A stretch of 64,000 nucleotides of DNA from a bacterium. GTDB taxonomy: Bacteria; Zhuqueibacterota; QNDG01; JAGLOF01. The position numbers and the translations under genes are program-made. The stretch lies in NCBI GenBank assembly GCA_023139105.1, contig JAGLOF010000023.1, forward strand, positions 2,446 through 66,445, written 5' to 3'. Below are positions 2,812 to 45,863 of this stretch, piece by piece. Positions within the stretch are counted from its first letter, which is position 1. Each line of letters opens with the position of its first letter. The notes under the pieces were generated by a model, which saw nothing but the letters and a program-made list of their open reading frames with translations, was not told the origin of the DNA and searched no databases.

Positions 2812-3039
2812 TTGTGTTCCCTCAAGAAGGCTTTAGATTACGGCAATAGTTGCATTGCAACAGGCAAAAACTGCACTTATCACGGCACAAAAAAATATTT
2901 TCTTAGATTTGATAACTCAAAAATTATACTGCCTTTTATCCTTTATTTCCAATGATTTACAGAGGCTCGTATCAAATCTGATATACTTACTTGGTGAAGC
3001 ATCATTCTTCAAAATGCAAGGATTGTACCACGTATTTAA

Positions 3040-22007: not shown

Positions 22008-22772
22008 TTATTTAGCATCGCGATTAAAAAAAATAAATGGAATCGTTTTAAACAAAATTTTCATATCAAACCATAGTGTCCAATGGTCTACATACCATAA
22101 ATCGAATTTAATTGCTTCTTCATAGTTCTTGGGAGTTAATCTTAAATTAATTTTTGACCAACCTGTTAAACCCGGTTTCACCTGATGACGACGATGGTAC
22201 CAATCTTTGTATTCACTTACTTCATATGTAGGATGTGGTCGTGGTCCAACAAGGCTCATTTCACCTTTAAAAATATTCCAAAATTGTGGTAATTCATCAA
22301 GGCTGGTCTCTCTAAGTAATTTTCCAATTTTTGTTACTTTACCATGGACAAAATCGGTGTACTCTTTGAGTAATCTGTCTCTTTCTTCCGGAGTTGGATC
22401 TCCGTCTTGTAGAAGTTGTTTTATGTATGCTTTATGATCTTCTGCGGAATCATAGTGATGCATAGTCCTGAATTTAAATATTTCAAATTCATTTCCAAGT
22501 TCACGTATTCTTTTTTGTTTAAAAAAGACAGGTCCCTTGGAGTTACTTTTAATTATCACTGCAATCAAGACCCAGAGAGGAAGAGAAATTAATAATGCAG
22601 CACTGGCTCCCATAATATCTATAAATCTTTTTGATTGTAATTGCCAATAGAGGGATTTCTCATCCCCAACAATAAGAACAGAACTATTGTCAATTGCCAG
22701 GGTCGAATACTCTGAATTAATATGTGATTTGATTGTAGTTTTCATCATCATATCCAATAATTCTTTAGGCAA
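22008..22772 (-). CDS. Initiating phosphoglycosyl transferase (bacterial sugar transferase family, small WbaP/EpsL-like)
   Basis: KRFIDIMGASAALLISLPLWVLIAVIIKSNSKGPVFFKQKR, FKFRTM and SLDELPQFWNIFKGEMSLVGPRPHP. Confidence 0.9.
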   Translation of the reverse strand: MPKELLDMMMKTTIKSHINSEYSTLAIDNSSVLIVGDEKSLYWQLQSKRFIDIMGASAALLISLPLWVLIAVIIKSNSKGPVFFKQKRIRELGNEFEIFKFRTMHHYDSAEDHKAYIKQLLQDGDPTPEERDRLLKEYTDFVHGKVTKIGKLLRETSLDELPQFWNIFKGEMSLVGPRPHPTYEVSEYKDWYHRRHQVKPGLTGWSKINLRLTPKNYEEAIKFDLWYVDHWTLWFDMKILFKTIPFIFFNRDAK

Positions 22773-23451
22773 ACCTATACCCTAAACCATGTATGGTTTG
22801 GATATATTTAAGAGCACCTTGATATTCACCTAATTTTTCTCTCAGGCGTTTAACATGTACATCAACAGTGCGGTCAGTAACATAAGCGTGTTCACCCCAT
22901 ACCTTTTGAAGAATCTCATCGCGAGTAAAAACATATTCACGTTTTGAGGCAAGTAGATAGAGAAGTTTAAATTGTGTGTAAGTCAGATCAATCAGAGATC
23001 CATCTTTTCTGACTTCATGAGAATCAAGATTTATTTCAATATCATGTATCTGTAGTGTACGTGGTTCACAATAAACTAAATCAATTCGCCTTAGAAGGGC
23101 ATTTGCCTTTGCAACCAATTCTGCAATATCTACCGGTTTACCAAGGCAATCATCGGCTCCTTCTTCGAGAGCCTTTATCCGAATACGACTATCATCACAA
23201 TTGGCAATATATATTAGCCCGGTACGGTGACATTCTTCTTTTATCATATTTGATATTCTTTTCATACCGGTATTTACATGATCAATATCAGCAATTAATA
23301 AGTGTATATCTAATCCATGAAGACCACGTAAAGCTGCATCTATATCTTCAGTGCTAAAAACATCAAAATTCTCATTCTCAAAAATTTTTATGAAATGAAT
23401 GGATGTTTCCGATTCATTCATCAGTAACATCATTTTTTTCTTTTCCATCAC
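22765..23451 (-). CDS. OmpR/PhoB-type response regulator (winged helix) with an atypical receiver; first gene of the EPS operon
   Basis: The C-terminus LTYTQFKLLYLLASKREYVFTRDEILQKVWGEHAYVTDRTVDVHVKRLREKLG...GLGYRF is an OmpR-type output domain. The receiver keeps the Asp (LLIADID) and Lys (LGKP), but the acidic pair reads NE and the Thr/Ser position reads Ala. Confidence 0.85.
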   Translation of the reverse strand: MMEKKKMMLLMNESETSIHFIKIFENENFDVFSTEDIDAALRGLHGLDIHLLIADIDHVNTGMKRISNMIKEECHRTGLIYIANCDDSRIRIKALEEGADDCLGKPVDIAELVAKANALLRRIDLVYCEPRTLQIHDIEINLDSHEVRKDGSLIDLTYTQFKLLYLLASKREYVFTRDEILQKVWGEHAYVTDRTVDVHVKRLREKLGEYQGALKYIQTIHGLGYRFA

Positions 23452-23779
23452 CTATGACTCCTGCTATCTGTGAGTTTTTATCTACTCACTCTTTAAGCAA
23501 TGGATGTACCAAACAAAATAAATATGTTATAACTTATTGTAAATTTAAAAGTTAGATGATGTGCAGTTTCCAGTAAGATTGCGAATAGAGGCAATTTTTT
23601 CCTAAAAGCGATGGCAGTTATTGCAGTAATGTCACAATTAAGACAATAAAGTTAAATTTACAAATAAAGATCAATCCTGACTCTAAATGTAGTTAATCTC
23701 ATGATCTCAGGTAATGTAAATTACTATTTACAATACCTGAAGATCAATAATACCAACAAAATCTAAATCTTAAAATATA

Positions 23780-30077: not shown

Positions 30078-30123
30078 CAAATATTGATTTTTATTGTAAT
30101 CAAATTGATTTTTGCAAATATTG
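30078..30123 (-). promoter_or_regulatory. Candidate operator/promoter repeats upstream of clpC
   Basis: CAAATATTG occurs twice (30078-30086 and 30115-30123). ATTGATTTTT occurs twice, 21 bp apart (30083-30092 and 30104-30113). The block lies 36-80 nt upstream of the clpC ATG. Confidence 0.25.
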
Positions 30124-30180
30124 AGCCATGAATTTATTCAAATGAATATTTTGAAATTTCTTTCTACTATTGAACTACGT

Positions 30181-33677: not shown

Positions 33678-34776
33678 CTAATCATTAAATTCCAATAGAT
33701 ATGCTTTTATAAAGGTAGAGAGATTACCATCCATAACATCCTGGACATTTGAAGTCTCTACTGAAGTACGGTGATCTTTAACCATGTTATATGGATGGAA
33801 TACATATGAACGGATTTGACTGCCCCATGAAATCTCTTTCTTTTTCTTTTCTATGGCTTCCATCTTTTTGGCATCTTCTTCTTTTTGCTTTTGATAAAGA
33901 CGTGCCATTAACATTTTCATGGCATTTGCTTTATTTTGAAATTGTGATCGTTCATTTTGACATTGAACAACAATATTTGTAGGGATATGTGTGATTCTAA
34001 CTGCCGAACTGGTTTTATTAACGTGCTGTCCACCGGCACCTGAGGCGCGATATGTATCAATACGTAAATCGGAGGGATTAATTTCAATTTCAATATCGTC
34101 GTCAACTTCCGGATATACAAAAACTGAAGCAAATGAAGTATGTCGGCGTTTATTGGCATCAAATGGTGATATTCTAACAAGACGGTGAACTCCTGCCTCG
34201 GCTTTCAGATAACCAAAAGCATATTTTCCGTTCACTTCAATGGTCGCACTTTTTATCCCAGCTTCATCACCCGTTTGCTGATCCATAATTTGAACATCAA
34301 ATCCGGAACGCTGTGCATATCTAAGATACATCCTGAATAACATCTCAGCCCAATCCTGAGACTCTGTTCCACCAGCTCCGGGATGTATAGTGACAAGTGC
34401 ACTCTTTGCATCATCTACACCACCCAGCATCCGCATCAACTCAAGCGATTCAAGGTCTTCTTTTATAGTAGCAAGATCTTTCAGCAGATCATTTAAAGTT
34501 GATTCTTCTCCCTCATCCTGAGCCATATCTGCCATCATCATAAGTTCTTCAAGCCTGGTATAAAGAGAATCCCATCTGTCGGTCCAATCCTTTAGCTCTT
34601 TTATTTTTTTAAGAACAATTTGGGCCTTTTCATTGTCGTTCCAAAAATTGGTATTCGATGTTTCTTTTTCAAGCAAATTTATTCGTTCTTTTTTGGCATC
34701 TACGTCAAAGATGCCTCCGTAGTTTCTCAACACGATCAATACTTTTTTTATGTCCCGATTTTATTATGTCATACAT
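33678..34776 (-). CDS. prfB: Peptide chain release factor 2, with programmed +1 frameshift
   Basis: ATG 34776 opens a 23-codon frame (MYDIIKSGHKKSIDRVEKLRRHL) that ends at an in-frame TGA (34707-34705). The context is GGAGG-CAT-CTT-TGA-C (34718-34704). The +1 frame continues DVDAKKERINLL... into the track ORF, which carries SPF and GGQHVNKTSSAVR. Confidence 0.95.
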
Positions 34777-34817
34777 TATTAACCTCTATCTTTAACCCAA
34801 TAGTACCTTATACTAAC

Positions 34818-34845
34818 AAAAAAAACATTGGCTGTACGGCCAATG
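34818..34845 (-). terminator. Rho-independent terminator of the REC operon (upstream of prfB)
   Basis: Stem CATTGGC/GCCAATG (34826-34832 / 34839-34845) with a 6-nt loop, followed on the minus strand by T8 (34825-34818). Confidence 0.75.
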
Positions 34846-35117
34846 AATATCAGCCCGCATTATTCATGAATTTTTGAAAAAAAGGAAAGTGTGGATTACT
34901 ACCAAGAGCATGCGGGAATGACATGGGAAAAATGTATCAGTCCCGAATGTTTTATCAGGAATCCAGGTAGGATATAAGTTTTATTTTTAATTAAATTATG
35001 CTTACTATCCCACCATTTCATGAATTAACGAGATTTGCTTTAATATGAGGTTAAATGTACTTAAAATTGTTTAAAAAGTCAAGTAATGTACAATGAAAAA
35101 TCCCAATTCTCCAGTGT

Positions 35118-36191
35118 TCAACACGATCCGTCAATATCCAGCATCATTATACCTTGCAAATACTCTTTTTGCACCGGATTGGTAATTTTTGCCAACTTTT
35201 GTGTAATATCTCTTATCCTCAATGCATTATTAACAATAATTCTCAAACGTCTGCGCGTATCTTCATCCTGCATACTATCACTCTGAAGTAAAAACTGTGC
35301 ATTACCTAAAATTGGAACCAATGGATTATTGATAGCATGATTTACAGCAACTGCGGTTTCAACAACAGCGGCTAATCTTTCCGGTTTTGTATCACTACCA
35401 ATATTCTCATCTATATTGGTTTGTGCTTTACAAATACCCAAAACACCCATAACCTGACCTTCACCGTTCTTCATTGTGGAAATAGAAATATTGACGGGTA
35501 TTTCTTCACTCTCTTTTGTTATAATAGATGTTTTGTAATTTTTCATCTTTGTTTTTCGCTGCATGTATGTACTGATACGAAGCATTTCAGATACACCGTC
35601 TTTTAGAAATTCACTAACGCGTGTCCCGATTAAATCTTCAAATTGGATTCCCAAAAGCTCTTCACAAGCCCGATTACAGAAAGTTACATACCCTTTTGTA
35701 TCTGTTGTTACAATAGCATCTACAGAAGATTCGATAACTCTTTCCATAAAATCTCTGGATTCACGTATTGTCTCCCAAAAATGTACTTCTTCCATTTTCA
35801 ACTCATGCGAAACCAATGCATCTTCTATAAAATCCAGAAAATCTCTCTGCCTGAATGGCTTTGTAATACATGCAGAAAAACCCAAACTGTATAAACGTGA
35901 GCGGTCTACATGACCATTTGTAGTTAAAGCAATAAAAGGTATATTCCTGGCTCCATCAATTACCGGACTTATAAGATAGCGCATATACAGCTCTTCACCA
36001 TTGACATCACTTAGATCATAATCAGTAATTACAAGATCGGGAGATTGCTGTTCTATACACTCCAGTGCATCTTCAGCATTTTCACAAAGGTGATATTTAT
36101 ATTGACCGGCAATTAATGCCTGACGCGCTGTCTCTCTGTATTGCGAATCATTATCAACATAGAGAATAAATTTTTTAGTATGAGTATTCAT
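35118..36191 (-). CDS. Receiver-PAS-DHp protein (histidine-kinase dimerisation/phospho-acceptor domain but no ATPase domain)
   Basis: Start taken at ATG 36191, an ATGA overlap with the upstream stop. REC: FILYVDNDS, LVITDYDL, ALTTNG, ITKPF. PAS: VIESSVDAIVTTDTKGYVTFCNRACEELLG. H-box: AVNHAINNPLVPILGNAQFLL. The protein ends about 55 aa later with no N, G1 or G2 boxes. Confidence 0.8.
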   Translation of the reverse strand: MNTHTKKFILYVDNDSQYRETARQALIAGQYKYHLCENAEDALECIEQQSPDLVITDYDLSDVNGEELYMRYLISPVIDGARNIPFIALTTNGHVDRSRLYSLGFSACITKPFRQRDFLDFIEDALVSHELKMEEVHFWETIRESRDFMERVIESSVDAIVTTDTKGYVTFCNRACEELLGIQFEDLIGTRVSEFLKDGVSEMLRISTYMQRKTKMKNYKTSIITKESEEIPVNISISTMKNGEGQVMGVLGICKAQTNIDENIGSDTKPERLAAVVETAVAVNHAINNPLVPILGNAQFLLQSDSMQDEDTRRRLRIIVNNALRIRDITQKLAKITNPVQKEYLQGIMMLDIDGSC

Positions 36192-36559
36192 TGTGCAAGT
36201 CTTTCTGATACCAGATCTCTCAAAGTCCATAAATCCCAGGGTTTGGATAGATATAATGTTCCATCCGTATTGTTTTCACCGATACATCCAAAATCTACAT
36301 CAAGATATCCCGATGTTAATACACGAACTGTATCAGGTGAACGATCACGAATTTCCTCAAGAAGGATATCGCCGGGTGCGTCCGGGAGTTTCAGATCTGA
36401 AAGTACAAAATCAATTGAATGTTTATTGAATACGGTCAATGCTTCGTCTGCGCGTGATGCAGTGTGTAGTTCATAGCCTTCATCTTTAAATAAATCGACT
36501 AATATATCAAGAACGTCGTTCTCATCATCTACAAATAGTAAATTTTTATTTTGATTCAT
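36188..36559 (-). CDS. Single-domain CheY-like response regulator
   Basis: LLFVDDEND, FVLSDLKLPD, VLTSG and LSKPW give the full canonical receiver set. GGAGG lies 6 nt before the ATG. Confidence 0.9.
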   Translation of the reverse strand: MNQNKNLLFVDDENDVLDILVDLFKDEGYELHTASRADEALTVFNKHSIDFVLSDLKLPDAPGDILLEEIRDRSPDTVRVLTSGYLDVDFGCIGENNTDGTLYLSKPWDLWTLRDLVSERLAQ

Positions 36560-36595
36560 CTCTGCCTCCAGAATGATTTCCTATTTCATCCTTCT

Positions 36596-36635
36596 AAAAA
36601 GCAACACGCATGCCAGAGATAATAGCATGCGTGTT
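36596..36635 (-). terminator. Hairpin plus T-run after the sigma-54 activator gene (candidate terminator overlapping a promoter)
   Basis: Perfect 11-bp arms AACACGCATGC/GCATGCGTGTT (36603-36613 / 36625-36635) with an 11-nt loop. On the minus strand this is followed by GC then TTTTT (36600-36596). Confidence 0.5.
36600..36616 (-). promoter_or_regulatory. Sigma-54 (-24/-12) promoter candidate for the CheY-like / REC-PAS-DHp operon
   Basis: The minus strand reads CTGGCATGCGTGTTGCT, against the consensus YTGGCACG-N4-TTGCW, with the exact GG-N10-GC spacing. The GC lies about 42 nt upstream of the ATG at 36559. The site is immediately downstream of a sigma-54 activator gene. Confidence 0.55.
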
Positions 36636-36705
36636 AAAGTTTTGAATTTATTGAATTTAACTAAAATTTGAAGTATTATTTTATGACGGATTCGACTTGA
36701 TTCAG

Positions 36706-36732
36706 GGAATGATTTTCCTGTTTGTGGAATGA
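36706..36732 (-). promoter_or_regulatory. Direct repeat GGAATGA x2 (possible enhancer/UAS for the downstream sigma-54 promoter)
   Basis: GGAATGA occurs at 36706-36712 and at 36726-36732, 20 bp apart. The pair lies 92-118 bp upstream of the -24 element, in the intergenic region. Confidence 0.3.
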
Positions 36733-36748
36733 ATTGCCGGTTGTATAA

Positions 36749-38122
36749 TTATATATCTATTCCTTCTTGGCGGTACTCATTCAGTTTATTACGAAGGGTT
36801 CGTACAGAGATTCCAAGGATATCTGCAGTTTTTGTTCTGTTAGCTCCATTTTCATCTAGTGTACGTAGAATAAGTTGTTTTTCAACTTCCCGTAAAGTAA
36901 TATCACCTTCAGGAATTGACGAGGAATTATTTACTCGCAATCTGGCTTGTGGATGGAAATGATGATTTTCTAAAAATTTTGTTTCAGGTTTACACATCAC
37001 TACTGCACGCTCAACACAATTTTCAATTTCACGTACATTGCCCGGCCAATCCCTATCTGACAGTGCAATCATTGCGTCTTCTGAGACACCTTCAACATTC
37101 TTAATATTTTCATCATTAAATTTTTTAACAAAATGGTTAATTAGAAGAGGAATGTCTTCTCTTCTTTTTGTGATTGGCGGCATATATAAAGGAACAACAT
37201 TTAAACGATAAAAGAGATCTTCCCTGAAACGTCCTTCTCTCACTTCCAGCTCTAGATCACGATTTGTAGTTGCAATAATGCGTACATCCACAGGAGTTAA
37301 ACGGCCTGCACCAACACGTTCAATCTCCCTTTCCTGGAGAACGCGTAATAATTTTGCCTGCATTCCAATAGATATTTCAGATATCTCATCTAACAATAAA
37401 GTTCCCGTGTCGGCTTGTTCAAAGCGTCCTTTGGTAGTTTTAATAGCCCCGGTGAAAGCACCCTTTTCATGACCGAAGAGTTCACTCTCAACAAGGCCTT
37501 CAGGTAAAGCAGCACAATTTGTAGTAATAAAAGGATTATTTTTTCTATTACTGTTATAATGAATTGCCCGGGCAACTAATTCTTTACCGGAACCACTGGC
37601 ACCTTGTATAAGAACAGTTGCTCTACTCTGTGAAACCATGCTGATACTGTCAAATATCTGTTGCATGCTGGAACTGTTACCTACAATATTTTTAAAACTG
37701 AATTTACGATCAAGTTCTTTCCTCAGTCGTTTGTTTTCCACAACCAGGTTTTGAAAATCGAAATATTTTTTAACTACTAATTCAATTTCATCTAAATTGA
37801 AGGGTTTTGTAATATAATCAAAAGCACCTATTTTCATTGCCCTAACAGCATTTTTGATGGAACCAAATGCCGTAATCATAATAATACCCATATCAATGTA
37901 CTTCTCACGAACCTCTTCAAGTACTTCCATTCCACTGATATCGGGAAGTCGTAAATCTGTAATTAGAAGATCAAAATCAGTTCTTTCGAGTTTTAATAGG
38001 GCTTCGCGGCCATTCATTGCAGTATCAACTTCATAACCATCTTTTATAAATGTTTCACTCAGAAGGTCTCTAATCATTTCTTCATCATCAAGAATGAAAA
38101 TTTTCTTAGAAGCAGCAGACAT
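36749..38122 (-). CDS. Sigma-54-dependent response regulator (NtrC/AtoC family enhancer-binding protein)
   Basis: REC (IFILDDEE, LLITDLRLPD, MITAFG, ITKPF). AAA+ domain with GASGSGKELVARAIH and the GAFTGA loop (GHEKGAFTGA). C-terminal Fis-type HTH (NRTKTADILGISVRTLRNKL). Confidence 0.95.
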   Translation of the reverse strand: MSAASKKIFILDDEEMIRDLLSETFIKDGYEVDTAMNGREALLKLERTDFDLLITDLRLPDISGMEVLEEVREKYIDMGIIMITAFGSIKNAVRAMKIGAFDYITKPFNLDEIELVVKKYFDFQNLVVENKRLRKELDRKFSFKNIVGNSSSMQQIFDSISMVSQSRATVLIQGASGSGKELVARAIHYNSNRKNNPFITTNCAALPEGLVESELFGHEKGAFTGAIKTTKGRFEQADTGTLLLDEISEISIGMQAKLLRVLQEREIERVGAGRLTPVDVRIIATTNRDLELEVREGRFREDLFYRLNVVPLYMPPITKRREDIPLLINHFVKKFNDENIKNVEGVSEDAMIALSDRDWPGNVREIENCVERAVVMCKPETKFLENHHFHPQARLRVNNSSSIPEGDITLREVEKQLILRTLDENGANRTKTADILGISVRTLRNKLNEYRQEGIDI

Positions 38123-38832
38123 TAATTGATCCTTTTAAATGTTAATTCATAACTATGTATATCACCCGTCGTCTTCATAATAAATTTTGCATCATGTGCT
38201 TTCATTATTTTGAGAATAACGGATATCGCAAGCCTGGTTTCAACATAATGCATTTGTTCCAGCCATAAATCAATAGATTCGGGCCAAGCCTGCATCAGTT
38301 CATGACAACTAAAAGAGAAAATTACACGAGTCTCTTCTAGATCATTTAGATCCGCTTCTACAGAAATTAATTGGCCACGCATATTTATTATACTTTTCAA
38401 AACATATTCAAATACTCTTTGCAAAGATCTGGGATCAGCTAAAATAGAGATTTGATTTTTATTAAAACATTCTGCAATATTAATATCAAGTTGATGCAAT
38501 TCAGGGATTGGAATTAAATTATTCAAAACTTGTTTAATAAAAATTCCAATTCTCACATTTTCCATTGAAAATTCAGCAGGACGAGCTAGAAGCATTACGG
38601 CAACGGCAACATCATTAACTTTTCTTACACCGTCTTGTACTTTTTCAGCTAGTCTACGTCGGGGATCTTCAGGTTCAAGATCTCGTTCGAGGAGTGCTGC
38701 AAAACCATCAATTCCGCCCATGCCATTTTTTATTTTGTGAATAACATCAACCATCAATTGGTCATTAAACAATGGCAAATCATTATTCCAAACACATTCT
38801 ATATTGGAATTTTGTTTTTTTAATTCTTTCAC
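38122..38832 (-). CDS. Degenerate histidine-kinase-like protein (DHp with conserved His plus a CA-like domain lacking ATP-binding boxes); possible histidine phosphotransferase
   Basis: GTG start at 38832, with GAGGG 6 nt upstream. The H-box-like VIHKIKNGMGGIDGFAALLERDL aligns with sHElrnPLtaIlGfaelL. The N-box position reads LQRVFEYVLKSIINM (the Asn residues are lost). No DxGxG or GxGLG boxes are present. The stop overlaps the activator ATG (TAATG at 38124-38120). Confidence 0.6.
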   Translation of the reverse strand: MKELKKQNSNIECVWNNDLPLFNDQLMVDVIHKIKNGMGGIDGFAALLERDLEPEDPRRRLAEKVQDGVRKVNDVAVAVMLLARPAEFSMENVRIGIFIKQVLNNLIPIPELHQLDINIAECFNKNQISILADPRSLQRVFEYVLKSIINMRGQLISVEADLNDLEETRVIFSFSCHELMQAWPESIDLWLEQMHYVETRLAISVILKIMKAHDAKFIMKTTGDIHSYELTFKRIN

Positions 38833-38871
38833 TCATTACCCTCGAAATAAAAATTATATTAATGGAAATAT

Positions 38872-38887
38872 AGCTTAAATCATGCCA
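38872..38887 (-). promoter_or_regulatory. Weaker sigma-54-like promoter candidate upstream of the pseudo-kinase/activator operon
   Basis: The minus strand reads TGGCATGATTTAAGCT. GG-N10-GC spacing is correct and the -24 half is good, but the -12 half is AAGC instead of TTGC. It lies about 40 nt upstream of the GTG start. Confidence 0.3.
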
Positions 38888-39071
38888 AATATCAATAACA
38901 AGAATTTTAATAATCAGATTTTCAAAAACAACATTAATTAAAGTGCTACAAATAATTTAAAAACAACATTTTACACAATTAATTTCAAACACACAAATAG
39001 AGATATAAAAGGAAGATTACAATTATATATAAAGTAAATTTCCATACAGTGAGCGGAATTCAAACATTTTA

Positions 39072-41489
39072 TTAAGCATTTAATAATCCGCGAAGTGATT
39101 GCATTAATGGTCTAACCTGATAAGGTTTTTCAACATACTGTTCAATAAGTCCTTGGTAATTCTGGAAATCAAAATCAATTTCACCTTTTTCAACTGCACC
39201 TAATACTTTAGCACCAGGACTAATCTGATTGAATTTCTGCATAATTCGTTTGACAGATGCGCCCCGTATATGTAAATCAAGTATTATCAAATCGATTTTT
39301 TCATTGTATTTTTTATATAATCCAACAGCCTCTGATGGAGTTTTAGCACTTAAAACTTTATAGCCATATCTAAGCAGCATTTTACGAGCGGTTTCTCTTA
39401 AAATTTGTTCATCATCAACTAATAAAATTGTTTCACTTCCCAGCAAAGGCAATTCATCTTTGACAGAATCTTCATTTTTTTCAGTAATAAATCTAGTGGG
39501 GAAATGTACTTTTATCATTGATCCTTTATTTGGTTCACTAAATACTGAGATAAATCCGTTGTGGTCATCAAGTATTTCTTTAACAAATGTTAATCCATAG
39601 CCAAATCCACTGTCGACTGGTTTTGTACTGCTACCAGGATCAAAAATTCTTGATTTAATTGTTGAATCCATACCGTCACCGGTATCACTGACAGTTAATT
39701 GAATATATTGTCCTGGTTTAACACCCTGTTTCTTCCATAAACCGCGGTCACCTACATCGATATTCCGGGTCTTAAAAAACATTTTACCGCCATAGGGCAT
39801 AGATTCTTTTGCATTTAAGGCCAATTGTAATATAACTTGTTGTATCTGGCTTGAATCAGCTTTAATTTTATGTAACTTTTCATCTAGATCTGCACGGATA
39901 ATTAAAGATTTATCAGATAATCTTGATAAGATACCGGCAACTTCTTTTACAAGTTGATTCAAATCTAATTTTTCACGTATACAGGCCGAATTTTGAGTAA
40001 AAGCCATTAATCTTGAAATTCGCTCTGATGCCTGCTCAGAAGATTTGTGAATTTTTTGTATATCATTATAATATGGACTGTCACTTTTTATTTCCTCATT
40101 TAGCAATGATGAAAAACCAAGTATGACAGCCATTAAATTATTAAAATCATGTACCATTCCGCCTGCAATCAAGCCCATTGCCTCAACTTTACGAACCTGA
40201 CGCAGCTGATATTCCAAACGTTCTTCATCTTTCCTGGAAATAAAATACCAATGATGTACAGGTTTTCCATCAATCTCATCAATAGTAAATGAAGCCCTTA
40301 CATTGAATGTAGAATTATTCTTTGCCTTCAGAGCAATTATGCAATTACCATCATTTTTTTCTTCATTAAATCCACCTCCAATGATATGTTCAAATCTATC
40401 CCTGTCTTCTTCGGAGATCAAATCGACTAATCTCTGACCTGTTAATGCAGACTTTGGCTTGCCAAGATTTTCTTGAATCCATTGATTTGTATTTGAAATA
40501 ATGCCATCACGTACTTCCATCATTCCCATCAATGAAAATTCTTGTATACCTGATAACATATTAGGCGCTACTTTATCAGAAGATTTTATTGATGAATCAA
40601 TTCCTGATAGATAATTGGTCAAGTTTGAAATAAATTTGAATGTTTCCATATCAATAGATGAAGATAACTGTTTTAATACATATAAAAATGCTCTATTCCC
40701 ACTCTCGAGTTGAATGCTCCATACTGCAACAAATTGGATTTTGTCAAAAACCTGTCTAAGTAGTTGTGCTTTATCTTTGTCAAATTTTGTATCTATTTCA
40801 TCCAATGATTCTATAAATCCACCAATTTCTCCATTGTCTGCATTATATATATTGATTTCACTAGCAAACTCCTCCCATTGCTCAACAGGCCAGGAAAGAC
40901 ATACCGGTTGTATACCTATGGGGGCAATTGTTGGATCAATTACATGAAGACGTCCATGTCCAGGCCATGTGCATCCAGCATATGTTACAGATAACGTTTC
41001 TCTTATTTTTTCCAGAAATATGGGCAAAGATTTAATGGTAATAGGAATATATTTTGAAATGGACGAGCTTAAATCAATTAACTTCCTTAATTGATATTCA
41101 GTTGTAACTTCTTTTAAATATATATGAAGAAGTGCAGGGTTTCCATTTTCATCATTATATGAAATAGCATTAAATAGAAAGTGTTTTTCTTCCAGTTGGC
41201 CTGCAAGTAAAATAACAGGCTCTTCACGAACAATTCCTCGATTAATGCATTGATCTATCAACATCTTTAATCTACTACGGTATTGAACATTTGTAAATTT
41301 ATAAATTTCTATGCCAATATAATCGGATTCCTGACATTGCAATTTTTCTTCAGCACTGCTGTTCAGCGAAATAATTATTCCTTGAGCGTCCAACTCAAAA
41401 AATAAAATACCGGCACGTGAATAGATTTTCCCCGCATCCTGAGGCAATGGATTTGAACCGGACGTATTGTATTTAGTAATGGCATCCAT
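39072..41489 (-). CDS. Soluble hybrid sensor histidine kinase (PAS/GAF-like sensors, HisKA, HATPase, C-terminal receiver)
   Basis: No TM segments. H-box GGMVHDFNNLMAVILGFSSLL. ATPase boxes LALNAKESM, SDTGDGMD and GFGYGLTFV. Receiver ILLVDDEQ and LIILDLHI. Confidence 0.9.
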   Translation of the reverse strand: MDAITKYNTSGSNPLPQDAGKIYSRAGILFFELDAQGIIISLNSSAEEKLQCQESDYIGIEIYKFTNVQYRSRLKMLIDQCINRGIVREEPVILLAGQLEEKHFLFNAISYNDENGNPALLHIYLKEVTTEYQLRKLIDLSSSISKYIPITIKSLPIFLEKIRETLSVTYAGCTWPGHGRLHVIDPTIAPIGIQPVCLSWPVEQWEEFASEINIYNADNGEIGGFIESLDEIDTKFDKDKAQLLRQVFDKIQFVAVWSIQLESGNRAFLYVLKQLSSSIDMETFKFISNLTNYLSGIDSSIKSSDKVAPNMLSGIQEFSLMGMMEVRDGIISNTNQWIQENLGKPKSALTGQRLVDLISEEDRDRFEHIIGGGFNEEKNDGNCIIALKAKNNSTFNVRASFTIDEIDGKPVHHWYFISRKDEERLEYQLRQVRKVEAMGLIAGGMVHDFNNLMAVILGFSSLLNEEIKSDSPYYNDIQKIHKSSEQASERISRLMAFTQNSACIREKLDLNQLVKEVAGILSRLSDKSLIIRADLDEKLHKIKADSSQIQQVILQLALNAKESMPYGGKMFFKTRNIDVGDRGLWKKQGVKPGQYIQLTVSDTGDGMDSTIKSRIFDPGSSTKPVDSGFGYGLTFVKEILDDHNGFISVFSEPNKGSMIKVHFPTRFITEKNEDSVKDELPLLGSETILLVDDEQILRETARKMLLRYGYKVLSAKTPSEAVGLYKKYNEKIDLIILDLHIRGASVKRIMQKFNQISPGAKVLGAVEKGEIDFDFQNYQGLIEQYVEKPYQVRPLMQSLRGLLNA

Positions 41490-41543
41490 ACAGAATGAAA
41501 ACTATGCTCCATTAAAGGTAATTATTGATCTCAATATACCTTT

Positions 41544-41559
41544 AGCAAAAGCCGTTCCA
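41544..41559 (-). promoter_or_regulatory. Sigma-54 promoter candidate upstream of the second hybrid kinase
   Basis: The minus strand reads TGGAACGGCTTTTGCT: one mismatch to TGGCAC, a perfect TTGCT, and GG-N10-GC spacing. It sits in the 82-bp gap between the two kinase genes, about 55 nt upstream of the ATG at 41489. Confidence 0.5.
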
Positions 41560-41571
41560 TACAATATGAAA

Positions 41572-44055
41572 CTAGCGGTTATTTTGAAGAATTTTTTGAA
41601 TGGTTTTTATAAGTATTTCCGTTTGGAAGGGTTTTTGGATGAAAAATTGGTTCCCCATTTGGAGAAGTTCAGGCTTATCTTCAGGGCTGTATCCTGAAAG
41701 AAAACAGATCAGTACAGATGGCAAAATTTCTTTCAAACGTCTGGAACATTCCTTACCACCCATAAATGGCATCATCCAATCCAGCAAAACAAGATCGATA
41801 TTGTCATGCTCCTTTTCAAAAATCTTTAACGCCTCAATACCATTTTCAGCAGTTATTACAGAGAAACCTCCTCGTTCAAGCATTCTCTGTCCAACTTCAC
41901 GAATCACCAGTTCATCATCTACTAACAAAATACGATTACCAAGTTTAGTCTTCTTTTGAACAGACGTTATTGCAGTTTTAGGTTCTTGAACAATTCTTGG
42001 TAAATAGAGTGTGACTGTAGTCCCCAGCTGGATTTCAGACTTAATATTGATTCCGCCGCCATGATTTTTAATTACGCCATAAACCATTGCCATACCCAAC
42101 CCAGCTCCATCACCGGCAGTTTTTGTAGTAAAGAATGGTTCGAAGACTCGATTTTTTGTGCGATCATCCATTCCCTGACCATTATCAGAAATTATAACCT
42201 GGACATAGTCACCTTTCTCCAAAACAGCTGTTTCTTTAACAGAAATTGAATCAAGAGAGACACAGTGGGTCTCGATACTAATTTTACCGTGTCCTCTTAA
42301 GGAATCAATACCATTTATACATATATTCAGTATGGCCTGTTGAATCTGTATTGCATCACCACTCACTAACCATATATCAGAATGGAAATTTGTATCCAGG
42401 ATCATTGTCTGATCCATGTTTTCTTTCAAAATTGGTAATATCTGTGAAATAATATTGTTAATATTCAATCTTCTTACCTGATATTTACCACCACGGGCAA
42501 ATGCCAATAATCGGCTTGTAAGTTCTGCAGCTCGTTTAGCGGTTCTGGAAATAGTTTCAATATCAGCATAATATGGATGGGATTCTGGCATGTCGCTTAA
42601 TAAAAGGGATGCATAACCGAGAATACCACCTAACAAATTATTGAAATCATGTGCAATCCCACCAGCCAGTGTGCTGATTGATTCCATTTTTTTTGTTTCT
42701 AAAAGTTCCCTGGCCATTGTTTTTCGTTCGGTAATATCAATAATATTTCCAAGTATAGTGGGCTGGCCTTTCAAAATTACTCTTCGCGAACGGATTTCAC
42801 ACCATAAAAGTTGTCCGTTTTTACGCATCAGTCGTATTTCGTAATGCTCAGGTACTTCCTCGCCATTTTCTCTTCTACGTTCTCTCTCTGTAACCCATAT
42901 TCTATCCTCAGGATGTACAAGACTGTAAAAACCAACATCAAAAAGCTCTTCTTTTGAAAAACCTGTCAGAGATTCAAATTGAGAATTTGCAAATAATATT
43001 GTGTCCCCTCTTAAATTGAACACACTGACAAGGCTGGATTCAACCAAAATTCGATATTTATTTTTAGATTCTTTTAAACTTATTTCAAGTTGTTTTCTAA
43101 GAGAGATATTCCGGATAAAACTCTGTATTGTCTCTTCACCATGGAACCAGACCCGTCTCGAAGAAATTTCCGCAAAAAATGAATTGCCGTTAGCTTTCAG
43201 TAATTTCGTATCAAGAGGACGATCAGTTGTTTTTTTAAGGACATTTTCAAAAAACAGTTGCTGATTATCCAGGGCTTCCTTTGGAACAATTTGTGTCCAT
43301 TTCATATCAACTAATTGTTTACGATTATATCCAAGCATTTGACAGGCAACATGATTTGCCTCAAATATGGCACCATCTTTATCATGAACAACAATACCGT
43401 CATTTGCACCTTCAAAAAGTGCATGAAACTGAAATTCCTGTTCTAATAATCTTTTAGTACCATCCTGGATACGTCTTTCGACTTCCGCACTCCACTCTTT
43501 CAATAGGGCTGTTTTATTTTTTAATTCATTAAATAATCGGGCATTTTGAAGTGACAGAGCCAATACAGAAGATATTGCTGTAACAAAATCAAGTATTTTG
43601 CCAGGATATCTACTCATTGATAAATTTAAAATGACCAAGACATCATAGTAGTCATTATCAAAATTAAATGGAGCAACCAATAAATTACTAATATTATTAA
43701 TATTTAAAAGTTTAAAGAAATCAGGGTCAGATTTAAAGTCATCAAGTAAAAGTATATCTTTTTTTTCATTAGCCAACTTTACCATCTCTACAAGTATTTT
43801 TTTATCAACAGATATCTGATTTTTATCCGGAGCAGTTTGGATAATTTTTATATTGAGATCTGATTTTGTTATCTGTAATAACAGGACTTCTTCTGCAAGA
43901 ACACGTTTGTGTATTTCAACAAGAAATTGTTGTGTTCTTTGCCATGGATCGGTCTCTTGAAAGAGCATTTCTTTTTTAGATGCCCATTCAATAAATGAGG
44001 ATTCTTTTGAGAAAAAGCTATTTTTCTCATTTGATGTTTTCTTAAAAACTGACAA
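41572..44055 (-). CDS. Soluble hybrid sensor histidine kinase (GAF-like, multiple PAS, HisKA, HATPase, C-terminal receiver)
   Basis: H-box GGIAHDFNNLLGGILGYASLL. ATPase boxes ILNICINGIDS, SDNGQGMD and GAGLGMAMV. Receiver ILLVDDELV and LVLLDWMMP. PAS signature PEHYEIRLMRKNGQLLWCEIRS. Confidence 0.9.
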   Translation of the reverse strand: MSVFKKTSNEKNSFFSKESSFIEWASKKEMLFQETDPWQRTQQFLVEIHKRVLAEEVLLLQITKSDLNIKIIQTAPDKNQISVDKKILVEMVKLANEKKDILLLDDFKSDPDFFKLLNINNISNLLVAPFNFDNDYYDVLVILNLSMSRYPGKILDFVTAISSVLALSLQNARLFNELKNKTALLKEWSAEVERRIQDGTKRLLEQEFQFHALFEGANDGIVVHDKDGAIFEANHVACQMLGYNRKQLVDMKWTQIVPKEALDNQQLFFENVLKKTTDRPLDTKLLKANGNSFFAEISSRRVWFHGEETIQSFIRNISLRKQLEISLKESKNKYRILVESSLVSVFNLRGDTILFANSQFESLTGFSKEELFDVGFYSLVHPEDRIWVTERERRRENGEEVPEHYEIRLMRKNGQLLWCEIRSRRVILKGQPTILGNIIDITERKTMARELLETKKMESISTLAGGIAHDFNNLLGGILGYASLLLSDMPESHPYYADIETISRTAKRAAELTSRLLAFARGGKYQVRRLNINNIISQILPILKENMDQTMILDTNFHSDIWLVSGDAIQIQQAILNICINGIDSLRGHGKISIETHCVSLDSISVKETAVLEKGDYVQVIISDNGQGMDDRTKNRVFEPFFTTKTAGDGAGLGMAMVYGVIKNHGGGINIKSEIQLGTTVTLYLPRIVQEPKTAITSVQKKTKLGNRILLVDDELVIREVGQRMLERGGFSVITAENGIEALKIFEKEHDNIDLVLLDWMMPFMGGKECSRRLKEILPSVLICFLSGYSPEDKPELLQMGNQFFIQKPFQTEILIKTIQKILQNNR

Positions 44056-44358
44056 TCAAAGATCCCTATTGATTAATGACTTGACTCGCGCTGTAACAAT
44101 AAAAAATGCAACCTAAATTCAATGTTAACAGGTAAAAAAATGGAGATACACAGAATATGTTGAATATTATTAAATTTACCAATAAAAGTCAAGATAAAAT
44201 TTGTTAAAGTATTGTCATATTTTAATACAAAAATGCGTCTATATTGAAAAAAGCGAAGGAGTTCTTACATTAAAATTCAAGATTCGGTGTGTAGAGATTG
44301 AATATTCATCATTTCTAGGGAACGCAAAAAGATTTCCGAGTCAACATGGGAGAAAAGG

Positions 44359-44637: not shown

Positions 44638-45159
44638 TTATTCTATTTCATTATTCTTTGATTTTTTATAACTATTTATCAAAATCCCGATACCAATTAC
44701 AATAATCAAGATCGGCCAAAAATATTCCCATATATTATCCAGATCTATATCCCATATACCCAGACTATCAATAGCACTCGACAGGCCTACCATAATTAAT
44801 ACTGCGCCGGGTATTAGTACACCCCATTTCTGTGTATCAATAATGAATTTACCAACAAATCCCAACCCAAATGCCAGAGGAAAAATTGGCCAATATTCAT
44901 CGGGATAGAGATACATTATTAAATTTAGATTTCTTGCAGCAAGAAAACAACCAATTACTGCAAGCGATATCCCCCAAAAAATAGCTGAAGATGATTTATT
45001 CCTGAATGCCTGATATAGCAATAGAGATGCAAATGCAAGAATTAATACAGGATAATAATCATAGAGCGAATCATCTAATCCGAATCTATCAGAGATCATC
45101 CAAAGTCCGAAAACTATAAGTAGCATACCGGGGATAAGACTACTGCGTTTCTCTTTCAT
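44638..45159 (-). CDS. Integral membrane protein (LiaF/DUF-type partner of PspC proteins); function unknown
   Basis: 173 aa with about five or six hydrophobic helices. It lies 2 nt downstream of the PspC-domain gene. Confidence 0.4.
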   Translation of the reverse strand: MKEKRSSLIPGMLLIVFGLWMISDRFGLDDSLYDYYPVLILAFASLLLYQAFRNKSSSAIFWGISLAVIGCFLAARNLNLIMYLYPDEYWPIFPLAFGLGFVGKFIIDTQKWGVLIPGAVLIMVGLSSAIDSLGIWDIDLDNIWEYFWPILIIVIGIGILINSYKKSKNNEIE

Positions 45160-45161
45160 TT

Positions 45162-45863
45162 TTATGCCTCCTCTGTTTGTGATTCAGGGACAGCAACCCA
45201 TAAACCGATATACAGGAGAAGGAAGAGCGGAGCATGTGTTGCCAGGCTAACCGCAACATAGGCTATTCTGACAATAACAGGTTCAATATTCAGATATTTG
45301 GCCAAGCCACTTAAAACACCTGCAATCCAGCGGTCACTTACACTACGCTGCATTTTTTTTCTATTATCAGTATCTGAGGTAGTAGTAGTTTTTGTAGTTT
45401 TAGTTGTGTCTTTTTTGTGATTTAGAGTGTAGACAATATATATTATTCCACAAGCCAAAATCAAGAATGGTAAGATCTCCCCAAAATCCATAAATCCTAT
45501 ACCGCGATAGTTAAAATGACGTGAATTATGCAATGGATTAAAAAAATGCCAGCTATCTGATAATATAAGGAGTCCTAATAATATTAATCCTCCGCCCCAA
45601 ATTAATCCCTGATTATGTGTAACTTTATCAGTTGATTTCATATTTTCCTGCTCAGGATTTTTTGGCATAAACAGTAAACTGGCCAGATATGCCCAGAATC
45701 CTATCCCACCCGCAAATATACTCATTACCCATATTACTCTTACAATAGTAACATCAAAGCCAAAATATTCGGCAACTCCACCACAAACACCATCAATCAT
45801 CTTATCTTTTTTAGACTTATAAAGTTTCTTTGATTTTATATCTTCCGATATTTTTTTTACCAT
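45162..45863 (-). CDS. PspC-domain membrane protein with two PspC domains
   Basis: N-terminal KMIDGVCGGVAEYFGFDVTIVRVIWVMSIF and C-terminal DRWIAGVLSGLAKYLNIEPVIVRIAYVAVSL both fit the PspC domain. A Thr/Lys-rich linker joins them. Confidence 0.8.
   Translation of the reverse strand: MVKKISEDIKSKKLYKSKKDKMIDGVCGGVAEYFGFDVTIVRVIWVMSIFAGGIGFWAYLASLLFMPKNPEQENMKSTDKVTHNQGLIWGGGLILLGLLILSDSWHFFNPLHNSRHFNYRGIGFMDFGEILPFLILACGIIYIVYTLNHKKDTTKTTKTTTTSDTDNRKKMQRSVSDRWIAGVLSGLAKYLNIEPVIVRIAYVAVSLATHAPLFLLLYIGLWVAVPESQTEEA

Follow-up and report, generated by a model that had tools for sequence, protein, structure and literature searches.

A conserved gene cluster from an uncultured marine bacterium suggests a phosphorelay in which a degenerate histidine kinase would serve a sigma-54 activator

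RESULTS

Organization of the signalling gene cluster

The 64-kb stretch of contig JAGLOF010000023.1 analysed here (the window, to whose positions all coordinates refer) carries, at 35118–44055, a cluster of six signalling genes, every one of them on the minus strand in the list of open reading frames (ORFs). The first two encode hybrid histidine kinases, HK1 (41572–44055, 827 aa) and HK2 (39072–41489, 805 aa). Pfam assigns the architecture PAS-PAS-HisKA-HATPase_c-REC to HK1, whose N-terminal ∼200 aa have no match, and PAS, an unassigned region and PAS-HisKA-HATPase_c-REC to HK2. They are followed by a pseudo-kinase, pHK (38122–38832, 236 aa), with only a sub-threshold HisKA match, and by an NtrC-family sigma-54 activator (enhancer-binding protein, EBP; 36749–38122, 457 aa; REC-Sigma54_activat-AAA_lid-HTH_8). 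The last two genes encode a CheY-like single-domain receiver (36188–36559, 123 aa; REC) and a protein of the type REC-PAS-HisKA without HATPase_c, here called RPH (35118–36191, 357 aa).

The pHK and EBP genes overlap in a TAATG, as is often the case for cognate kinase and regulator genes, and the CheY-like and RPH genes overlap in an ATGA. The longest ORF for RPH (370 aa) probably overstates the length of the protein: its homologues as well as the ATGA overlap point to 357 aa. All six proteins are predicted from hydropathy to be soluble, because none contains a hydrophobic 19-mer above a Kyte-Doolittle (KD) value of 1.43. No match to the histidine phosphotransfer (HPt) domain Hpt (PF01627) was found in the six proteins at E ≤ 0.1, and the intergenic gaps of the cluster are not long enough for a hidden gene. 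An earlier, sequence-only reading of this DNA had described six co-directional signalling genes, two cytoplasmic hybrid kinases ending in receivers, a kinase-like gene coupled by TAATG to the activator gene and the want of a canonical HPt protein. These observations hold, with minor corrections to the strand and to the start of the last gene; the sensing by PAS and GAF domains that it also proposed reduces to PAS, Pfam detecting no GAF domain in HK1 or HK2.

pHK keeps the phospho-acceptor histidine and has lost the ATP-binding motifs

A word-index search returned eight relatives of pHK. An exhaustive profile search gave ∼57 clusters at 50% identity, of 205–257 aa and E < 1e-27, after which came PAS kinases of ∼420 aa. 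Residues were counted in 55 of the short members and in the nearest ∼420-aa kinases (n = 53 for the G1 and G2 boxes, n = 25 for the residue after the histidine, H+1). The phospho-acceptor histidine (His32 in pHK) and the asparagine at H+4 are present in all 55 clusters. The G1 box (DxGxG) is found in one of the 55, compared with 50 of the 53 long kinases, and the G2 box (GxGxG) in none, compared with 47 of 53. In the alignment the N and F boxes are likewise gone from the family, a conserved P-x-E-A-R-L stands where G2 would be, and the proline that ends the H-box of kinases is lost. The H+1 position is lysine in 50/55 clusters and glutamate in 22/25 of the neighbouring real kinases; glutamate at this position is required for autophosphorylation. 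Measured against a functional HisKA kinase, pHK therefore has the H-box DHp and is without the nucleotide boxes and the acidic H+1 residue, and its match to Pfam HisKA stays at 14.7 bits (cut-off 26.9, E = 0.03). The family thus appears to have retained the phospho-acceptor and the receiver-docking helix while losing everything needed for ATP use; the sequence-only reading had described the 236-aa protein as kinase-like, with an H-box but no ATP-binding boxes.

An AlphaFold2 (AF2) model of pHK, computed from an alignment of eight sequences (pLDDT 81, pTM 0.81), shows a helical hairpin corresponding to DHp at residues 24–83 and then an α/β domain. A Foldseek search with this model returned the DHp-CA regions of histidine kinases, including the non-canonical RetS and DivL, among the 50 hits shown. 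The intact DHp and CA-like fold in the model and in its structural matches indicates that pHK is a maintained protein and not a decaying gene. In profile comparison with PDB sequences the best match was ZraS (E = 2e-11), and in NCBIfam AtoS (3e-10) and ZraS, with scores far below the family cut-offs. A protein identical to pHK carries the annotation "hypothetical protein KAR48_04535".

In another reading pHK would still be an autokinase, with a nucleotide pocket of non-canonical type. Its CA-like fold persists, as does the length of the lid region, the domain has its own conserved P-x-E-A-R-L, and Nla6S of Myxococcus is reported to autophosphorylate with an atypical CA domain. The loss of all four nucleotide boxes and of the H+1 glutamate across 55 clusters, however, makes cryptic kinase activity most improbable.

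Two assignments to known transferase families were rejected. As an HPt (PF01627) domain pHK gives no profile match, and the AF2 model has a DHp plus α/β arrangement and not a four-helix bundle. Its H-box at residues 32–40, HKIKNGLGG, resembles what we take to be the HK[IL]KG motif around the phospho-histidine of HPt domains (e.g. ArcB); since the Pfam Hpt profile is unmatched, this likeness is at most convergence. Homology to ChpT or Spo0B, the type of protein that the sequence-only reading had suggested, was rejected as well: neither appeared at E ≤ 1 when the pHK profile was searched against PDB sequences, nor among the 50 Foldseek hits listed, all of which are genuine kinases. What does stand of that suggestion is the architecture, a DHp with its histidine and a dead CA-like domain. 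With the boxes lost, the predicted α/β domain would correspond to the C-terminal Bergerat-like domain, unable to bind ATP, of ChpT-type proteins.

Dead kinases co-occur with hybrid kinases, live kinases do not

GTDB species genomes were scanned with the pHK alignment, giving 47 loci whose ORFs were scored against the six window proteins. In 41 of these loci an ordinary PAS-HisKA-HATPase kinase of 370–460 aa lies directly upstream of the EBPs most similar to that of the window, and nearly all of these kinases have the G1 and G2 boxes. They come from KSB1, Gemmatimonadales, Zixibacteria, Ignavibacteriales, Verrucomicrobiota, Chlamydiae and others. The pHK family and the live kinases have in common the helix-1 sequence GGIxGFAxLLERDL, the receiver-docking face. 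The simplest reading of these comparisons is that pHK is the cognate kinase of the EBP itself, minus its PAS sensor and its ATPase function, and alignment and profile matches indicate an independent conversion of an AtoS/ZraS-derived kinase, convergent with ChpT and Spo0B.

The remaining 6 of the 47 loci have a dead kinase; with loci found by looking up the exact proteins and 14 metagenome loci they form the dead-kinase set. Wherever the contig extends far enough to be assessed, a hybrid kinase resembling HK1 or HK2 lies immediately upstream of pHK (28/28 loci) and an EBP immediately downstream (28/28); with duplicates removed, these loci represent ∼19 distinct lineages. No hybrid kinase was found at any of the 41 live-kinase loci, in flanks that extended as far as 10 kb to either side, or to where a shorter contig stopped. 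Such a distribution would be expected if the hybrids replace the lost ATP-dependent input. Both hybrids are present in most dead-kinase loci; L060 and L064 (loci are given by number) have only an HK2-like kinase, and L065 has only an HK1-like kinase next to pHK. The CheY-like and RPH genes follow in most of the set. Locus L009, which has the HK1-HK2-pHK-EBP core, shows neither in the ∼1.3 kb left before the contig end, and L010 is without the CheY-like gene. Synteny in close relatives extends to the housekeeping genes on the flanks, so the argument from co-occurrence is carried by the distant loci. The sequence-only reading had asked whether the six-gene arrangement recurs; it does so in ∼19 non-redundant lineages, and is therefore not due to chance.

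Hybrid kinases and their receivers

The HK1 core has as its best PDB sequence match the DHp-CA structure of CckA (5idj, E = 4e-39), and the best NCBIfam models of both kinases are CckA, at 307 bits for HK1 and 224 bits for HK2. HK1 and HK2 are not called CckA orthologues, since the NCBIfam equivalog cut-off of 1000 is not reached; their core is CckA-like.

The kinase type of the hybrids bears on a possible role of pHK as a modulator of the hybrids that carries no phosphate and acts through DHp-DHp or CA-like contacts, as RetS and DivL do. The structural matches to the model of pHK include both of these, and pHK is always found with hybrid kinases. On the other hand, the DHp of pHK is AtoS/ZraS-like and those of HK1 and HK2 are CckA-like, which makes heterodimers unlikely, and the histidine of pHK and its surroundings are invariant, whereas that of DivL is replaced. 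We regard modulation of this kind as very doubtful.

Five receiver types were aligned across the loci. The HK1 receiver has the motif F[LT]SGY (FLSGY in the window) together with the residues D-D-D-S-K in 9/9 orthologues, and in the CheY-like protein LTSGY is invariant in all eight sequences; in both, this FxSGY motif sits at the end of β-4. In the PDB the CheY-like protein is best matched by Spo0F (6ifh, 2e-15) and by the isolated receiver domain of a histidine kinase (6tne, 8e-13), which we take to be the CckA receiver. Compared with NCBIfam models it resembles the receiver region of CckA (2.6e-14) and CpdR (1.8e-9). The FxSGY motif is FATGUY-like, and such a motif has been described in the CckA receiver, CpdR, MrrA, SdrG and Sma0114; its role was left open by the authors, and the intermediary or relay receivers that bear it have partners of the DHp type, for instance ChpT and PhyT (PMC9981736).

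In the window the HK2 receiver is canonical, its first acidic pair being DD; orthologues have DE, DN, DS, ET or QN there. The pair is degenerate in L001, L004, L006, L007, L009, L012, L015, L027, L060 and L064, with the phospho-accepting aspartate and the lysine kept.

The activator

EBP matches Pfam REC (3.7e-30), Sigma54_activat (9.6e-71) and HTH_8 (1.1e-12), and the GAFTGA motif can be read in its translation. A receiver, an AAA+ domain with GAFTGA and a Fis-type helix-turn-helix identify it as an NtrC-family sigma-54 activator. Its receiver is of the conventional NtrC type, with the DD, D, T and K residues present in 12/12 sequences. The best NCBIfam model is AtoC; an assignment as AtoC itself was rejected, as the score of 524 bits falls below the equivalog cut-off of 714.

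These features need to be considered together with the possibility that pHK is a phosphatase, or an anti-activator that sequesters EBP, and that EBP would be phosphorylated directly by the DHp domains of HK1 or HK2, by an HPt protein from another part of the genome or by acetyl phosphate. The invariant H+4 asparagine, on which HisKA phosphatase activity depends, and the docking helix inherited from the cognate kinase would suit such a role; translational coupling fixes the stoichiometry of pHK and EBP, and our view is limited to 64 kb of the genome. PhyT, moreover, both transfers phosphate and sequesters its regulator (PMC5898713). The conservation of the histidine in all 55 clusters points the other way: HisKA phosphatases have no strict need of it. 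The DHp of a hybrid kinase normally serves the tethered receiver, and hybrids accompany the dead kinase in 28/28 loci and the live kinase in 0/41, as if replacing the lost ATP input. The EBP receiver is also complete and conserved, unlike that of NifA, and a NifL-type anti-activator was rejected for this reason. A role confined to dephosphorylation or sequestration is, in our estimate, unlikely.

The REC-PAS-DHp protein

The PAS-DHp part of RPH is AtoS-like (NCBIfam, E = 1e-26). Its H-box, VAVNHAINNPLVPILGNAQFLLQ, is essentially invariant, with alanine at H+1 and asparagine at H+4, and in 10/10 sequences the C-terminus lies ∼20 aa after DHp helix 2. As RPH too is without a catalytic domain, the cluster is predicted to contain two DHp proteins, pHK and RPH, that are unable to autophosphorylate. 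We know of no characterised protein with a REC-PAS-DHp architecture. RPH could be a phosphatase under the control of its own receiver, or else a second node in the phosphotransfer pathway. The sequence-only reading gave this gene too little weight.

Sigma-54-type promoters and an enhancer-like element

Three of the gaps in the cluster contain a sigma-54-type element, GG-N10-GC in the context of TGGCAC-N5-TTGCW, all on the minus strand. The element of HK2, TGGAACGGCTTTTGCT (41544–41559), matches the consensus at 10/11 positions and lies 55 nt upstream of the start; the block TGGAAYG..TTTGCW is kept in L001, L004, L006, L007, L009, L010 and L027 while its flanks diverge. That of the pHK-EBP operon, TGGCATGATTTAAGCT (38872–38887), is a GG-N10-GC element, and the block TGGCAYGATTTMRGCA is kept in 11 loci, including the distant L008–L011 and L015, within spacers that are otherwise unalignable. 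The element of the CheY-RPH operon, TGGCATGCGTGTTGCT (36600–36615; 10/11), lies 41 nt upstream of the start and is kept in all loci that have the operon. Alignments of the spacers from five diverged loci show GG-N10-GC invariant in poorly conserved DNA, the aligned blocks being TGGAAYGGCWTTTGC before HK2, TGGCAYGATTTMAGC before pHK and TGGCATGCGTGTTGC before the CheY-like gene, and the same three elements recur in more distant loci. The promoters that the sequence-only reading had placed in three intergenic gaps are thus present, and invariant or nearly so across diverged loci.

The loose pattern TGG-N9-TGCW shows no enrichment over the window (19 occurrences, 16.8 expected), so a signal for sigma-54 sites comes only from strict scoring, position and conservation. 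Strict scoring gave 8 matches in the window compared with 4.2 ± 1.9 in shuffles. All eight are on the coding strand and five fall in intergenic DNA, which makes up ∼10% of the window; of these five, four lie 41–71 nt and the other ∼190 nt upstream of a start codon. Given this placement, the host very probably has RpoN.

Just past the EBP stop codon, and ∼100–120 nt upstream of the CheY promoter, lies an enhancer-like element (36706–36738) of two 13-bp dyads of the type GGCAA-N3-TTGCC, 20 bp apart. Its half-sites are found at about −122 (−111 to −124) and −102 (−91 to −104) in 9/9 loci examined. The pair has a single match in the window, and 15 of 100 shuffles also gave one; the evidence for it is consequently its conservation and not its rarity. 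Of the output that the sequence-only reading had assigned to EBP, transcription of the downstream receiver operon thus gains a candidate binding site. Feedback on the island itself is uncertain, because the motif stands only upstream of the CheY-RPH promoter.

With this promoter in view, a further reading can be weighed, in which RPH, alone or with pHK, is the actual histidine phosphotransferase and pHK is mainly a modulator. RPH has an invariant H-box and no catalytic domain, its AtoS-like DHp could dock the AtoC-like receiver of EBP, and it is translationally coupled to a protein resembling Spo0F and the CckA receiver. Its expression from the enhancer-bearing promoter, however, makes it look like an output rather than an obligate input, and the L009 core without CheY-like and RPH genes in what remains of the contig, together with L010, which is without the CheY-like gene, also speaks against it. 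We consider this very unlikely.

The CheY promoter overlaps a hairpin of 14 pairs (36602–36636, minus strand) that resembles a terminator, with a T run after it, and whose 3′ arm is the −24/−12 element. Both arms and the promoter spacer GCGTG, which is normally free to vary, are invariant in the window and in L001, L004, L006 and L007; loci further away in sequence do not have the hairpin. The structure may combine the functions of terminator and promoter, or may be a palindrome to which a protein binds.

Upstream of HK1 no sigma-54 element was seen in the window gap. A weak sigma-70-like candidate (TTGACT, 17 nt, TAATAT; 9/12 consensus) lies at 44164–44192 on the minus strand, and a sigma-70 consensus scan gave no excess over shuffles. 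L012 and L027 have a sigma-54-like element upstream of HK1 instead.

Other elements and flanking genes

A terminator-like hairpin with a T8 run, found in a terminator scan, lies 3′ of RPH at 34826–34845 (minus strand). It falls within the 378-nt gap between RPH and prfB (34740–35117), a position at which L001, L004 and L006 have a ∼510-aa gene with a weak match to SpoIID; L012 has a strong sigma-54-type element after RPH. No RNA genes came up when the window was scanned with Rfam and for tRNAs, and among the 30 flanking ORFs scanned with Pfam there is neither rpoN nor an HPt gene.

Directly upstream of HK1, at 44638–45863, are genes for a PspC-domain protein and a LiaF-like membrane protein, a position kept in L001, L004 and L007. 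The Psp system of E. coli is under the control of a sigma-54 EBP; no sigma-54 element was seen ahead of the genes at 44638–45863.

Three more intergenic sigma-54-type elements (10/11 each) were found on the minus strand of the window. The element at 30113–30128 lies 71 nt upstream of clpB. That at 23496–23511 is 45 nt upstream of the gene for an OmpR-type response regulator (22765–23451), which heads a long co-directional gene cluster of exopolysaccharide type (3040–23451) encoding a Wzx-like flippase, a Wzz/GNVR tyrosine-kinase-like protein, a polysaccharide deacetylase, a radical SAM/B12-binding protein and an initiating sugar transferase. The third, at 3015–3030, is ∼190 nt upstream of a large secreted protein, the ORF at 1–2832 (minus strand), which is cut by the window start, has at least 944 aa and begins with a sequence resembling a signal peptide.

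DISCUSSION

Our results are best accommodated by a multi-step phosphorelay with pHK as its histidine phosphotransferase, dimeric and of the DHp type, a reading that we think rather probable. With the ATP boxes lost, the histidine kept and hybrid kinases always alongside, pHK most likely works like ChpT or Spo0B, without being homologous to either. The PAS regions of HK1 and HK2 would detect signals in the cytoplasm, and each kinase would autophosphorylate and then load the receiver at its C-terminus. The phosphoryl group would then be taken by His32 of pHK, which itself would make no use of ATP, and handed on to the receiver of EBP. Phosphorylated EBP is proposed to bind the dyad pair past its own stop codon and to activate the sigma-54 promoter of the CheY-RPH operon. 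The products of this operon, the CheY-like protein and RPH as a receiver-gated DHp protein, would most likely be a sink or a phosphatase that drains or reverses the flow of phosphate, and so provide negative feedback. The relay is supported by the CckA-like character of both hybrids and by the FxSGY motif that the HK1 receiver and the CheY-like protein share with relay receivers. The domain architectures, the loss of the ATP boxes beside a retained histidine, the descent from a cognate kinase, the co-occurrence with hybrids and the conserved cis-elements can be read from the sequences; all phosphotransfer steps, the roles of the CheY-like protein and RPH and the choice of EBP for the HK2 and pHK-EBP promoters are inferences.

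Several observations weigh against this relay. The FxSGY motif also occurs in receivers that are not part of relays. In L060 and L064, where HK2 is the sole hybrid, the acidic pair of its receiver is among the degenerate ones. An invariant H+4 asparagine fits a phosphatase-only role, which would account for much of the same evidence, and RPH is a second candidate for the transferase. An HPt protein could be encoded outside the 64-kb window, and rpoN is not among the window ORFs scanned. The enhancer motif is absent upstream of the pHK-EBP promoter (9 loci) and of the HK2 promoter (8 loci). All loci, moreover, come from metagenome-assembled genomes of uncultured bacteria. Taken with the comparative evidence, which strengthens it, the relay first suggested by the sequence-only reading is partly supported and is the best interpretation available; each part of it that computation could address came out in its favour.

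Functionally the closest known system is CckA–ChpT–CtrA/CpdR, which likewise uses a CckA-like hybrid kinase with an FxSGY receiver. ChpT is, like pHK, a DHp protein of ∼230 aa, dimeric, with its histidine at position 33 (32 in pHK) and a Bergerat-like domain that makes no use of ATP (PMC3433190). Output is branched there, as it would be here, to a DNA-binding regulator and to a motif-bearing single-domain receiver (PMC9981736). However, ChpT and pHK have no detectable sequence homology, pHK being derived from an AtoS/ZraS-type kinase, and the terminal regulator here is a sigma-54 AAA+ activator whereas CtrA is of the OmpR type. The present genes, moreover, lie together in one cluster with input from two hybrid kinases, and the host, from a lineage near KSB1 (the named taxon closest to it by LysS, at 62% identity), is unrelated to Caulobacter and the other Alphaproteobacteria that have CckA–ChpT.

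Other phosphorelays differ in other respects. In the Spo0F–Spo0B–Spo0A system of Bacillus the transferase has no sequence similarity to pHK, and in the present cluster the kinases themselves carry the intermediate receiver, and a sigma-54 EBP provides the output. PhyT is of the HWE/HisKA2 type. It is also membrane-bound and its output is an anti-anti-sigma factor, in contrast to pHK, which is predicted to be soluble and is of the HisKA type. In the Pak–SdrG–PhyT–PhyR pathway of Sphingomonas, PhyT (PhyP) is, as proposed for pHK, a kinase-like protein whose conserved histidine passes phosphate from a receiver to the terminal regulator, and which restrains this regulator as well (PMC5898713), and SdrG, the donor receiver of PhyT, has the FATGUY motif (PMC9981736).

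Relays that end on sigma-54 activators are known: TacA is sigma-54-dependent, and LuxN/LuxQ–LuxU–LuxO of Vibrio and SypF–SypG of Vibrio fischeri likewise end on such activators. In the Caulobacter pathway ShkA–ShpA–TacA a hybrid kinase is followed by a histidine phosphotransfer step and an NtrC-family regulator (PMC7010744), the same order as in our scheme. The HPt proteins or domains of these relays are monomeric four-helix bundles; here no HPt was found and a dimeric dead kinase is proposed in its place. The DHp of pHK and EBP are most similar to the pairs AtoS–AtoC and ZraS–ZraR, and gene order and translational coupling are those of a cognate pair, but unlike AtoS and ZraS, pHK is without a sensor domain and all ATP-binding motifs.

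It is possible, and in our judgement evenly balanced, that a cognate AtoS/ZraS-type kinase became a transferase and that a two-component system was in this way rewired into a multi-input relay ending on a sigma-54 activator, with RPH and a relay-type receiver, transcribed by that activator, which could form a loop that drains phosphate. If the relay operates as proposed, it would be the first DHp-type relay to end on a sigma-54 activator as far as the searched literature goes; a literature search of incomplete coverage brought up no account of a sigma-54 EBP that receives phosphate from a DHp-type transferase.

DHp-type transferases occur in few lineages (Spo0B, ChpT, PhyT and PhyK-like proteins), and their origin from kinases has been inferred, not observed. 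The pHK family of ∼55 clusters, which current Pfam and NCBIfam models leave unnamed, places the presumed ancestral state (a PAS kinase with its EBP) and the derived state (a dead kinase with hybrids and EBP) side by side in related uncultured bacteria. The changes that separate them are sharply defined: glutamate has given way to lysine at H+1, and neither the PAS domain nor the N, G1, F and G2 boxes have been kept. Because loci of both types survive, the steps from kinase to transferase could be reconstructed, and the family may serve as a model for the rewiring of a pathway and for the residues that make a DHp protein a transferase and not a kinase. For specialists in two-component signalling, its main attraction would be that the ancestral and derived states are both at hand for comparison.

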